DNA from: Erythrobacter sp. | GTDB lineage: Bacteria; Pseudomonadota; Alphaproteobacteria; Sphingomonadales; Sphingomonadaceae | Reading direction: 5' to 3' | DNA: 64,000 nucleotides | NCBI GenBank assembly: GCA_009993605.1 | Contig: JAACTB010000007.1 | Coordinates: 771,333-835,332 of the forward strand | In this document: one piece after another, positions 21,855 through 28,681 of the stretch | How positions within the stretch are numbered: position 1 is the stretch's first letter | Layout: each line of letters opens with the position of its first letter | Translations under genes and position numbers: made by a program | Notes under the pieces: model-generated | Told to the model about the DNA's origin: nothing | Seen by the model: the letters and a program-made list of their open reading frames with translations, nothing else | The model's database searches: none

Positions 21855-21870
21855 TGGCACGGCTCTTGCT
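21855..21870 (+). promoter_or_regulatory. Sigma54 (-24/-12) promoter
   Basis: TGGCACGGCTCTTGCT matches consensus TGGCACG-N4-TTGC(A/T); intergenic and upstream of a small CDS. Confidence 0.7.
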
Positions 21871-25439: not shown

Positions 25440-25975
25440 CGCCCGACCAGGACGCGCCCGAACGGATCGAATGGCAGGGCAAATACATCACCGCCAAGAC
25501 CCGCGGGCGCTGGGAATATGTCGGGCGCGCTCGCAATATCCGGGCCGCGGTGATCCTGCCGCTGATCGGAAACGACGTGATCCTGGTCGAACAATATCGC
25601 GTGCCCCTCGGCCGCAATTGCATCGAACTGCCCGCCGGCCTGATCGGAGACGAGGACGGCAAGGCCGACGAGGATGACCTGTCCGCCGCAGGGCGCGAGC
25701 TGGAGGAGGAGACCGGCTATCGCGCAGCGAAACTCGAAGAGATCGGCCAGTTCTTCTCATCGCCCGGCATGGTCAGCGAAAGCTTCACGCTCGTCCGCGC
25801 CACCGAGCTGGAACGGGTTGGCGAAGGCGGCGGGACGCCGAGCGAAGACATCGCCGTCCACCGCGTCGCGCGGGCGGGCCTGAAGGAATTTCTCGACCGG
25901 AAACGCGCCGAAGGTTGCGGCGTCGACGTGCGCCTGCTCTTGCTTCTGGGACAGGACATAATCGCAGGAGAGTAA
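25436..25975 (+). CDS. NUDIX hydrolase (ADP-ribose pyrophosphatase-like)
   Basis: VEQYRVP, IELPAGLI, Nudix box with A.RELEEETGY, SSPG. Confidence 0.9.
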   Translation: MTPDQDAPERIEWQGKYITAKTRGRWEYVGRARNIRAAVILPLIGNDVILVEQYRVPLGRNCIELPAGLIGDEDGKADEDDLSAAGRELEEETGYRAAKLEEIGQFFSSPGMVSESFTLVRATELERVGEGGGTPSEDIAVHRVARAGLKEFLDRKRAEGCGVDVRLLLLLGQDIIAGE

Positions 25976-25977
25976 AG

Positions 25978-26772
25978 GTGGCGGAAGCGAAAAACGGCAG
26001 GTGCGCGGGCAAGCTGGCGCTGGTGACGGGCGCGGCGCAGGGTCTGGGGCGCGCCCATGCGACGCGGCTGGCCGAAGAAGGCGCGCGCGTCCTCTGCACC
26101 GATCGCAATGGCGAAGGCGCGGAAGAAACCGCGCGGCTGATCGACGAGAAGCTGGGCAGCGGCACGGCCTTCGCCTGCGCGCACGACGTCACCGATATCG
26201 ACGCATGGGCCAATGCCGTCGAACTGGCGCGCGACAAGATGGGCGGGTTGAACGTGCTGGTGAACAATGCCGGGATCGGCGTTGGCGGCAATATCGAGAC
26301 CTGCGATTTCGACGACTGGAAGCGCTGTTTTTCGGTCAATGTCGATTCGATCTTCCACGGCTGTCGCGCGGCGTTGCCGCTGATGCGCGAGCATGCGCCG
26401 GGCTCGATCGTCAACATCTCCAGCATCGCCGGGCTGATCGCCAGCGATACGATGCCCGCCTATAATTCGTCTAAGGCGGCGGTGTGGATGCTGTCGAAGT
26501 CGATCGCGCTCCACTGTGCCAAGAACCGGATGGATATCCGCTGCAATTCGATCCACCCCACCTTCGTGGATACGCCGATCCTCGACGGGACGGCCAAGAA
26601 CCACAATCTGGACAAGGATGTGCTGCTGGAAAAGCTCGCGCGGCAAATTCCGCTCAGGAAAGTCGGCGAGCCAAACGATATTGCCGATGCGGTGGTCTAT
26701 CTCGCCAGCGACGAGAGCAAGTTCATGACCGGGGCCGAGCTGAAGCTCGACGGCGGTATTTCGGCGATGTAA
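25978..26772 (+). CDS. Classical SDR oxidoreductase
   Basis: TGAAQGLG, LVNNAGI, SIVNISS, YNSSK, IRCNSIHP; GTG start with AGGAG RBS. Confidence 0.92.
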   Translation: MAEAKNGRCAGKLALVTGAAQGLGRAHATRLAEEGARVLCTDRNGEGAEETARLIDEKLGSGTAFACAHDVTDIDAWANAVELARDKMGGLNVLVNNAGIGVGGNIETCDFDDWKRCFSVNVDSIFHGCRAALPLMREHAPGSIVNISSIAGLIASDTMPAYNSSKAAVWMLSKSIALHCAKNRMDIRCNSIHPTFVDTPILDGTAKNHNLDKDVLLEKLARQIPLRKVGEPNDIADAVVYLASDESKFMTGAELKLDGGISAM

Positions 26773-26785
26773 TTTTCTTCTCTCG

Positions 26786-26900
26786 CGGCGGATCGCTTCG
26801 CGATCGCCTCCGAGGGGGCGGCCTGACGGTCGACGCGCAGTCGCGCTTGCGGGCCGTTCCGGCCCGTTTGGCGAGGGGAGGAGAGCAAACTCCCCTCCCC
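26786..26900. repeat. Intergenic multi-hairpin element plus terminator-like stem
   Basis: Stems GGCGGATCGC-TTC-GCGATCGCC, CGGGCC-GTTCC-GGCCCG and GAGGGGAG-N9-CTCCCCTC between convergent genes. Confidence 0.45.
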
Positions 26901-27117
26901 TCAATCCGCGATCAGGCCGATCGCGAGGTAGATCAGCAGGAAACTGCCGAAGCCGAGCAGCGTGCCGAGCACGAAACCGACCCGCACCAGCGTCACGTCG
27001 ATCCCGAAATGGCGGGAGATGCCGCTGCAGACGCCCATGATCTTGCGGTTCTGGCGGTCGAGCGCGAAGCCCTTGCTTGGGGGTGCCGCCGACGGATGAA
27101 GTGCGAAGGTCGTTCAT
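26901..27117 (-). pseudogene. PspC-domain membrane protein with a 1-nt frame disruption (pseudogene, programmed recoding or sequence error)
   Basis: One frame gives GFALDRQNRKIMGVCSGISRHFGIDVTLVRVGFVLGTLLGFGSFLLIYLAIGLIAD-stop (PspC pattern R...K..GVC.G...FGID..LVR). ATG 27117 to the stop is 217 nt (72 codons + 1). Confidence 0.7.
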
Positions 27118-27227
27118 GCCAGCATTCCGTTCGGCGAGGCGGGGATGATTGCGGTGGCGAAGAACACGGCCGAGATGGCCAGCGAGAAGGCGGCTGCGAA
27201 CAGCTTGCTGCCGTCGAAGTCGAACAT
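27114..27227 (-). CDS. 37-aa hydrophobic peptide B (MFDFDGSKLFAAAFSLAISAVFFATAIIPASPNGMLA)
   Basis: ATG with AAAGGAG RBS; ATGA overlap with the PspC start; paralog of peptide A. Confidence 0.8.
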   Translation of the reverse strand: MFDFDGSKLFAAAFSLAISAVFFATAIIPASPNGMLA

Positions 27228-27251
27228 TGGAAACTCCTTTCGTGGGATGGG

Positions 27252-27365
27252 TCAGGCGATGAGGACGGAGGGGCTGGCGGGCACGATCGCGGCGGCCATG
27301 CAGAGCGCCGAGATGGCGAAAGCGGCGATGGCGGCGAAGGCGTTGTTGGCTTTGAAAAGAGACAT
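27252..27365 (-). CDS. 37-aa hydrophobic peptide A (MSLFKANNAFAAIAAFAISALCMAAAIVPASPSVLIA)
   Basis: ATG with AAAGGA RBS; GC3-rich codons; same length as peptide B, 17/37 identical without gaps. Confidence 0.8.
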   Translation of the reverse strand: MSLFKANNAFAAIAAFAISALCMAAAIVPASPSVLIA

Positions 27366-27418
27366 GATCAGTTTCCTTTTTCCCTGAACCCGGCCTTTCC
27401 GGGTGACGAAGAAATGAT

Positions 27419-27434
27419 TGCAACCGCCGTGCCA
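27419..27434 (-). promoter_or_regulatory. Sigma54 (-24/-12) promoter for the peptide A-peptide B-pspC unit
   Basis: Minus strand TGGCACGGCGGTTGCA is a full consensus match, about 54 nt upstream of the peptide A ATG. Confidence 0.78.
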
Positions 27435-27445
27435 AACGCGAGGAT

Positions 27446-27526
27446 TGGCGGAATTCCGCCATTCGACTAGCCCACGATGCTGACAGCTTTGTTCATCAAT
27501 CCGAAAGGTTGGGAATTTTCGCCATT
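27446..27526. promoter_or_regulatory. Candidate activator sites: perfect palindrome and related distal site
   Basis: TGGCGGAATTCCGCCA (27446-27461); the half-site T[CT]CGCCATT recurs 63 bp away in TGGGAATTTTCGCCATT (27510-27526). Confidence 0.45.
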
Positions 27527-27589
27527 TCTTGGATAGCGCCCTATTCAGGTGGATAGGATCGCGCGCACGAGCTATTGCCCGGACCGTCC

Positions 27590-28681
27590 ATGGCGCTCGA
27601 CCGCATCTCCCTTTCCGGCTTCCGCAACCACATCGATACCGCGATCGAAGGCACGCGGGCGGTCAATCTGCTCGTCGGCACTAATGGCGCGGGCAAGACG
27701 AATGTTTTGGAAGCACTCTCGCTCTTCGCGCCGGGTCGCGGAATGCGCCGTGCGGCGCTTGCCGAAATGGCGCGACACGATGGCGGCGGTGGGTTCGCGA
27801 TCGGCGCCGATCTGGCCGCGGCTCAAACTGGAGAGAGCGAGCCGGTCCGCCTCGGCACCTATACCGAACCCGCGCAGCCGGGCCGCCGCCGGGTGCGGAT
27901 CAACGGTGCGGAAACGAGCGCGGTGGCGCTTGGCGAGTGGCTTGCGGTCGGCTGGCTGACCCCGGCGATGGACGGGCTGTTCACCGGGCCAGCGCAGGAC
28001 CGAAGGCGCTATCTCGACCGGCTCGCGCTCGCGCTCGACCCCGAACACGCCAGCCGCGCCAATCGCTACGAAGCCGCGCTGCGTGAGCGCAACCGATTGC
28101 TTTCGGACGATCGCGAGCCCGATCCCGTCTGGCTCGACGCCATCGAAGCGCAGCTGGCCGAACACGGCGCGGCCCTGTCGCGCGGGCGCGCGGCACTGAT
28201 CGATGCGATGATGGCGGAAATCGTAATCCAGCCCGAAGCGCCCTTCCCCCGCCCCGCCCTCAGCTACGCGCCCGGCGGCCCGCAAGGGTTCGAGGCGCTG
28301 TCCCAGGCGCTTCATGACGGGCGCCGCCGCGACCGGGCGGCGCAGCGCACGCTCACCGGACCGCACCGCGACAATGTCGAGGTGCTCTACGCCGCCAAGC
28401 GGATGCCCGCAGCGGCCTGTTCGACCGGAGAGCAGAAGGCGCTGCTGCTGGCGATGACGCTGGCCCATGCGGCTCTCGCCGCGAAAGGACGCGCCTCGCT
28501 CTTATTGCTGGACGAGGTAGCCGCCCATCTCGATCCCGACCGGCGCGTCGCCCTGTTCGACCGCCTGCGCAGCGGCGGCGCGCAGGTGTGGATGACGGGG
28601 ACGGAGATCGCCCCCTTCGAAGCGATAGCGGGCGAGGCGGCCGTCTGGGAGGTGCGAGGCGGCGCGGTTTCGCCTCGTTGA
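27590..28681 (+). CDS. recF: DNA replication/repair protein RecF
   Basis: FRNH, GTNGAGKTNVLEALS...PGRG.R, WLTPAMDGLF, GPHR, STGEQKALL, LLLDEVAAHLD. Confidence 0.95.
   Translation: MALDRISLSGFRNHIDTAIEGTRAVNLLVGTNGAGKTNVLEALSLFAPGRGMRRAALAEMARHDGGGGFAIGADLAAAQTGESEPVRLGTYTEPAQPGRRRVRINGAETSAVALGEWLAVGWLTPAMDGLFTGPAQDRRRYLDRLALALDPEHASRANRYEAALRERNRLLSDDREPDPVWLDAIEAQLAEHGAALSRGRAALIDAMMAEIVIQPEAPFPRPALSYAPGGPQGFEALSQALHDGRRRDRAAQRTLTGPHRDNVEVLYAAKRMPAAACSTGEQKALLLAMTLAHAALAAKGRASLLLLDEVAAHLDPDRRVALFDRLRSGGAQVWMTGTEIAPFEAIAGEAAVWEVRGGAVSPR

Follow-up and report, generated by a model that had tools for sequence, protein, structure and literature searches.

Paired membrane microproteins encoded by a putative satellite unit of the phage-shock regulon beside recF in Erythrobacter and related bacteria

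Introduction

To which regulatory system does a compact sigma-54-type transcription unit beside recF in an Erythrobacter genome belong, and what might be the role of the two very small membrane peptides that it encodes ahead of a broken pspC gene? The unit lies in a stretch of 64,000 nucleotides of an Erythrobacter sp. contig (JAACTB010000007.1), all of which is referred to here as the window, and it was brought to attention by a first-pass annotation that described it as a satellite envelope-stress module. The phage-shock (Psp) response has been well studied in the enterobacteria, where its regulon consists of pspABCDE and pspG. In E. coli, PspF binds UASs (enhancers) at pspA, which has two of them, and at pspG, which has one (PMC3709507). 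A survey of the partners of the PSP system lists PspB duplicates and PspC fusions and no microproteins of the kind considered here (PMC11237479), and our literature search turned up no publication that treats these peptides or, in the Sphingomonadales, mini-PspC units. The reading that we favor, and consider probable, is that the locus is a satellite transcription unit of the Psp envelope-stress regulon that supplies stress-induced membrane microproteins. If this is true, a second PspF-type unit, distributed family-wide and carrying a microprotein family for which there is no Pfam or NCBIfam model, would bring new effectors into the regulon.

Organization of the unit

The unit is read from the minus strand and consists, in order, of the promoter motif TGGCACGGCGGTTGCA (27434-27419), a 54-nt leader, ORF A, a 24-nt spacer that contains AGGAG, ORF B and an ATGA overlap with pspC. 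It adjoins recF in what is a Qipengyuania/Erythrobacter-type bacterium; recF is on the plus strand and divergent from the unit, with a start near 27590, and the true RecF corresponds to the 368-aa ORF at 27575-28681 (+). On the other side, a short-chain dehydrogenase gene (25915-26772) converges on the unit. Between these convergent genes, a terminator-like hairpin of 13 pairs without a U-tract (26902-26873, minus strand) starts within the pspC stop codon; its folding energy is -30.8 kcal/mol (z -3.7), and an equally good fold was obtained in none of 200 shuffles. A second hairpin, at 27388-27404 (minus strand), lies near the 5' end of the predicted transcript (ACCCGG and CCGGGT around an AAAGG loop), and in an RNAalifold analysis of 24 loci each of its 6 predicted pairs has at least one sequence that is changed on both sides with the pairing retained. 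Two long plus-strand ORFs across the region (26484-27470 and 27145-27387) were rejected as coding sequences, since they have no Pfam match and are antisense to a Pfam-supported gene.

The whole arrangement was found again in all 24 of the same-genus genomes searched, and 22 of the 24 have the promoter followed by A (37-41 aa), then B (37-42 aa), then a PspC of 71-73 aa that begins at the ATGA. This recurrence, together with the rarity of the strict promoter motif in the genome (see below), indicates that the arrangement is more than the product of chance.

Traces of the unit are also present in RNA libraries. A 212-nt contig from a marine metatranscriptome, with 5 differences, spans 27184-27395, an interval that runs from the 5' UTR through the whole of A into the first part of B; its edge at 27395 lies 13 nt inside the predicted transcript, and the same run has no contig over recF or over 26917-27183. 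In addition, 31-mers of 27114-27434 are present in 15 runs listed as RNA, which are marine and lake-water metatranscriptomes from several studies. As the contigs carry no strand information and could stem from contaminating DNA, these traces are suggestive of transcription of the operon.

The microproteins

Microprotein A (27365-27252, minus strand; MSLFKANNAFAAIAAFAISALCMAAAIVPASPSVLIA) and microprotein B (27227-27114, minus strand; MFDFDGSKLFAAAFSLAISAVFFATAIIPASPNGMLA) are each 37 aa long and are paralogues with a single predicted transmembrane helix, A ending in AIVPASPxxxIA and B in FATAIIPASPNGxLA. The first-pass annotation had pointed to them as two unlisted ORFs with ribosome-binding sites of their own, and both are there, with sites of the GGA/AGGAG type 6-10 nt ahead of each ATG. 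A recount on the translations likewise gave the 17 identities in 37 ungapped positions that had been claimed (46% by a separate measure), and the pattern FAA..AISA..A.AI.PASP is common to both peptides. That A and B are real genes is indicated by comparison with relatives. Neither frame is interrupted by a stop in any of 23 same-genus loci, and one alternative frame is interrupted in 9-11 of the 23; over a 29-codon core of these loci A has a dN/dS ratio of 0.42 and B one of 0.31, and variability and entropy by codon position follow the order third, first, second. Conserved orthologues, synteny and purifying selection, on which the earlier proposal had been staked, are thus all in evidence among the relatives. 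The A-type (..MAAAIVPASPAGFIA) and B-type (..FATAIIPASPNGLIA) signatures remain distinct from one another in 22 same-genus genomes, and the duplication is therefore older than the genus.

Among 5.8 billion proteins searched with a profile there are more than 777 homologues of 37-39 aa, none of which has a Pfam domain. Those that have a name belong to Qipengyuania and Erythrobacter and are labelled "recombination protein F" by both NCBI and UniRef; these entries of 37-39 aa match the A/B family at 76-64 bits. The label is plainly a propagated annotation error, probably carried over from the adjoining recF gene, and hundreds of such entries are due for renaming. Gene callers that skip ORFs of fewer than 40 aa overlook genes of this kind altogether. 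Scans of both peptides against Pfam and NCBIfam gave nothing above cut-off, and a search of the ESM Atlas gave unnamed clusters only.

In each peptide the N-terminus is short and polar, and a conserved Lys or Arg immediately precedes the single helix; one face of the helix is made up of small residues (A11, S15 and S19), and after the helix comes the nearly invariant tail AI(V/I)PASPxG, with the strongest conservation around PASP. From the position of the Lys or Arg we infer that the N-terminus is cytoplasmic (N-in), which would place the PASP tail at the outer face of the membrane.

These features bear on a suggestion of the first-pass annotation, namely that the peptides resemble bare signal peptides, and on its extension to exported pro-peptides that would be cleaved near VPA|SP and release a short, Phr-like C-terminal peptide to the periplasm. 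An n-region, a hydrophobic region, small residues and a tail of 5-8 residues could be read in this way, as could the peak of conservation around PASP, and PhrC_PhrF matches were obtained below threshold (E 0.035 and 0.0054). The resemblance has no other basis than such a sub-threshold match (14 bits, where the cut-off is 25), which does not support the suggestion: B reaches 14.1 bits with the Phr-type pro-peptide profile (PF11131) and A has no match, and the Phr matches as a whole, at 14-17 bits, probably reflect composition. The hydrophobic stretch of about 20 residues is of transmembrane length, the tail is hydrophobic and variable, and there are no genes for processing or export nearby, all of which makes export and cleavage very unlikely when compared with the membrane microproteins that we propose.

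The suggestion that the peptides are PspB-like fared no better, at least as a matter of descent. Like PspB, they are small single-pass membrane proteins encoded directly ahead of pspC, with coupled translation; unlike PspB, they are of half the length and lack the cytoplasmic coiled coil, and neither has a PF06667 match at E values up to 10, so that they are not PspB homologues. The true PspB of this genome, encoded elsewhere, matches PF06667 at 67.5 bits (E 1.1e-18).

The half-size pspC gene and its frameshift

The third gene of the unit (26901-27117, minus strand) encodes 71-73 aa in relatives; in this strain its frame is shifted by an additional A at 27077/27078, directly after a run of five C residues (27083-27079). 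The PspC domain (PF04024) is recognized at 64.2 bits (cut-off 25, E 9.7e-18) solely in the frame 27113-26901, after the shift; with the equivalog model TIGR02978 the score is 54.2 bits, below the cut-off of 104. According to the first-pass annotation, the stop of B overlaps the ATG of a PspC-domain gene. The overlap is indeed there, as ATGA at 27117-27114, but the ATG at 27117 leads out of the PspC frame, and the 72-aa reading that it opens (MNDLRTSSVGGTPKQ...) has no Pfam match. From the ATGA, relatives read M(N/S)DLKFRDDD..PSKSFRLDRxNGKLMGVC... through an intact and well conserved gene, and the window has MNDLRTSSVGGTPKQ in the frame of the relatives and continues as ..PPSKGFALDRQNRKIMGVC in the next. 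Within the PspC-domain frame there is no ATG, GTG or TTG upstream of consensus residue 27, and the sole in-frame start, the ATG at 27038, lacks a ribosome-binding site and would yield a 45-aa stub. Barring rescue, the product of the ATG at 27117 would be out of frame in this strain, and only A and B would be expected to be made. The domain frame is also that of peptide B, beyond its TGA, and we considered a B-PspC fusion made by UGA readthrough; it was rejected because a 1-nt insertion after an ATGA overlap automatically creates a common frame, and there is no evidence of recoding.

The insertion does not appear to be an error of one assembly. A 925-nt contig from an aquifer and an independent 540-nt contig from a hot spring show no difference or gap with respect to the window, the insertion included, and it is therefore real in this lineage; contigs of close marine relatives have one base fewer at 27077 (depth 106.6 of 145.7). 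Since the codons of the PspC domain downstream of the insertion are still consensus-like, the insertion must be recent.

As an aside on the organism itself, aquifer and hot-spring metagenomes, each from a different study, contain DNA identical to 26700-27700 at the low depth of 5-8x, and groundwater runs contain 48-79% of the sampled words of this interval in a word index; we are dealing either with a cosmopolitan organism or with a contaminant that recurs.

The mini-PspC resembles canonical PspC (TIGR02978/PF04024) in having a clear PspC domain, and its promoter and enhancer are laid out like those of the genome's own pspA promoter. It differs in size, with 71-73 aa as against 124, in that it ends right past the membrane helix and has no C-terminal half, and in its setting, as the unit differs from canonical pspABC in having neither pspA nor pspB and, in this strain, a frameshifted pspC. 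The unit thus offers a simple system in which to ask what a bare PspC domain does without the PspA-binding half.

The sigma-54 promoter

A full -24/-12 match 54 nt ahead of A had been reported, and we find it as described: TGGCACGGCGGTTGCA, at 27434-27419 on the minus strand, ends 54 nt before the ATG at 27365 and reads TGGCAC-N5-TTGCA, with GG at -24 and GC at -12 and a predicted transcript start near 27408. The strict motif TGGCAC-N5-TTGCW occurs at only 6 sites on both strands of the 2.99-Mb genome. All 6 are followed by an ATG or GTG, at most about 90 nt into the downstream flank, and another of them precedes a glnB/glnK-like PII gene. The GG-N10-GC core is retained in all but one of the same-genus loci, with a variable spacer. 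The genome has rpoN (Sigma54_DBD, 225 bits) and six full-length genes for bEBPs (Sigma54_activat), and no sigma-70-like promoter was found in 26700-27650.

Directly upstream of the -24 element, at 27447-27460 (-52 to -39), is a perfect 14-bp inverted repeat, GGCGGAATTCCGCC, for which the alignment of relatives shows the conserved form ATGGC.GAATTC.GCC; the repeat is too near the -24 element for a usual enhancer and is not IHF-like. A T-rich proximal block of similar kind, cgTTTTTC.aGTTTGGCAC, is present in the pspA promoters. Elsewhere in the window there is a second strict sigma-54 motif, TGGCACGGCTCTTGCT (21855-21870, plus strand), just past an astB-like gene; next come AAGGA and the GTG start of an ORF of about 80 aa, which includes a hydrophobic helix.

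An enhancer in common with pspA

The proposed tie of the unit to the phage-shock system is supported by three features of the genome, these being rpoN, a pspF/pspABC locus and a palindrome at a fixed distance of 74 nt from both promoters. The canonical psp locus is on another contig (C20), where pspF is divergent from the pspA promoter TGGCATACAGCTTGCT, which drives, in order, a 50-aa single-helix ORF, pspA, pspB, pspC (124 aa) and two weakly PspB-like ORFs. The PspF candidate is a protein of 342 aa (L035:1474-2502) with an AAA+ domain and an HTH and without a receiver domain.

Upstream of the peptide promoter, at 27509-27524 (minus strand), is the palindrome TGGCGAAAATTCCCAA, centered about -109 from the predicted start and probably a PspF site. 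It reads TTGGGGAAATTTCCCAA in relatives and ends exactly 74 nt before TGGCAC in all 24 of the peptide promoters; ATAGGGAAATTTCCCCAA ends the same 74 nt before TGGCAC in 12 of 14 pspA promoters that stand beside pspF. A PWM of the 16-nt core was built from relatives only and scored on the interval from -160 to -1 of all 11 sigma-54-like sites of the genome. The scores were 19.9 bits for the peptide promoter and 12.3 bits for the pspA promoter of this genome, in each case exactly at 74 nt, and the nine other sites reached at most 3.8 bits anywhere in the interval; scores of at least 12 bits occur 74 times among 5.98 million positions. As the same palindrome and the same spacing are found only at these two of the 11 sites, the unit is very probably a satellite of the PspF regulon. 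In a relative, a second peptide pair, located between ruvC and an arsC-like gene and without pspC, has the same palindrome at 74 nt, which assigns the site to the peptide promoter rather than to recF.

It might be argued instead that the unit is driven by some other enhancer-binding protein, in a response unrelated to phage shock. The six bEBP genes include five full-length ones besides that for PspF, and a 22-nt PWM with the flanking bases is unspecific and gives no genome-wide cross-detection of the two promoters, so that the case for the enhancer rests on the 16-nt core and the fixed spacing. Moreover, an intact unit and enhancer are retained in a genome of the same genus, G002, for which marker genes indicate 99% completeness, and neither PspA nor a PspF orthologue was found in it, through either deletion or an assembly gap; a synteny comparison for the pspF/pspA region gave almost no DNA matches there. 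On the other hand, the palindrome at 74 nt is found elsewhere in this genome only at the pspA promoter, abutting pspF, the unit itself carries a PspC-domain gene, and PspA and PspC matches co-occur perfectly in 151 genomes of the family, the 13 without PspA being exactly the 13 without any PspC match (a descriptive count, as the genomes are related). We therefore regard a different activator as rather unlikely and retain PspF as the candidate regulator.

Membership in the regulon would make the unit comparable to pspG of E. coli and Yersinia, which is likewise a sigma-54 unit outside the psp operon, with a single PspF enhancer and a small inner-membrane protein as its product. There is no sequence relation between the two, and the unit described here differs in encoding two 37-aa single-helix paralogues along with a PspC-domain gene, in being confined to one alphaproteobacterial family and in that its regulation is read from sequence.

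Distribution among relatives

The peptide profile matches 54 of 301 genomes of the order, all of them within the window's own family, and includes 23 of 23 genomes of its own genus and 16 of 16 of a second genus; 14 of 86 genera are represented overall, with arrays of up to six copies. There was no match in nine other families of the order and none in 349 genomes of other Alphaproteobacteria. The architecture reaches beyond the profile, as is seen at 30 mini-PspC loci, which represent about 29 genera of the family, the Sphingomonadaceae taken broadly. The promoter TGGCAC-N5-xTGCA is present at 28 of these loci, and one to three single-helix ORFs of 35-46 aa lie between promoter and pspC at 29; most of the ORFs ahead of mini-pspC match the peptide profile at 19-51 bits, and some are too diverged.

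There are also pairs of 36-40-aa paralogues that stand alone behind a sigma-54 promoter of their own, at four loci: L028:1310-1660 (-) in G014, L027 in G009, L064 and L065. No pspC was found within 800 nt after the promoter (L027 and L028) or in the rest of the locus, about 1.8 kb (L064 and L065). The pairs at L027 and L028 have ..AIVPASPAVFA; L028 is the pair between ruvC and the arsC-like gene, with the enhancer at 74 nt, and L027 is cut by the end of a contig.

Stand-alone pairs are of consequence for the possibility that the ORFs are mainly regulatory leader peptides, comparable to MifM and SecM, which set the coupled expression of pspC and have no function as stable proteins. Their very small size, their hydrophobicity, their position upstream of pspC and the ATGA coupling of B would all suit such a role. 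It is nevertheless hard to reconcile with pairs that have the same promoter and no downstream pspC, or with a strain in which pspC is broken and both peptides are intact, and conservation extends to the very C-terminus, with the A and B types kept apart throughout the genus. We judge a leader role to be distinctly improbable, and from the same two observations, the pairs without pspC and the intact peptides beside a broken one, it follows that the peptides are not simply accessories of the adjoining PspC. We argue, in keeping with the microprotein reading, that they work without a PspC encoded beside them.

The pattern of inheritance speaks to a further reading, in which the peptides are membrane-damaging type I toxins akin to TisB, Ibs and Sho, with mini-PspC or the Psp system as protection. 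Their size and hydrophobicity are typical of such toxins, and a link to membrane stress is compatible with it. Against this, no antisense RNA gene or promoter was seen, the genes are chromosomal, syntenic and vertically conserved across the family, they have strong ribosome-binding sites and occur in two to six tandem copies, and the peptides are kept where pspC has been lost. A toxin function is thus extremely unlikely, and we return to the satellite unit of the Psp regulon.

A model for the unit

In the model that we propose, a PspF-type activator, encoded on another contig beside pspA, would bind the palindrome about 109 nt upstream and turn on sigma-54 RNA polymerase at TGGCAC-N5-TTGCA. 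The resulting transcript would start near 27408 with the conserved hairpin and would encode A and B and, in relatives, the half-size PspC, translated by coupling through the ATGA. The microproteins may then serve as stress-induced, oligomerizing components of the membrane, perhaps as A/B pairs and perhaps together with the glycine-rich helix of mini-PspC, and could either tune Psp signalling or have a direct effect on the membrane. Prediction of a complex of A, B and mini-PspC, for which the alignments of relatives were used, gave a score of 0.00, which is uninformative either way. A bolder and more tentative idea, which we hold to be possible and less than likely, is that A and B are the founders of an undescribed class of Psp-regulon effectors that hetero-oligomerize and act on the membrane by themselves, with mini-PspC as an optional partner; the stand-alone pairs of other genomes and the two intact peptides beside a broken mini-pspC in this strain speak for it. 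The frameshift in pspC makes this strain a natural experiment on the dependence of the peptides on PspC.

Small reading frames at the canonical psp locus

The canonical psp operon has small ORFs of its own. It opens with the 50-aa single-helix ORF mentioned above (MYDRSFFRTQLGQAA...QVEIA; C20, L040:2388-2579 (-) and L073:1197-1346 (-)), the stop of which overlaps the next start as ATGA or GTGA; the pspA that follows has a long N-terminal extension, and the ORF is present in 14 of 14 same-genus loci. Homology of A and B with this pspA leader was looked for and not detected, with an hhalign probability of 0.3% and HMM scores of at most 11.5 bits for the divergent peptides against the family of this ORF. 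Downstream of the canonical pspC (L040:136-761 (-)) are the two further ORFs, which are about 100 aa long and have in common an N-terminal helix and the motif ERIVTD(K/R)GY; one of them has a weak PspB match (E 0.013), and the two may be diverged PspB duplicates.
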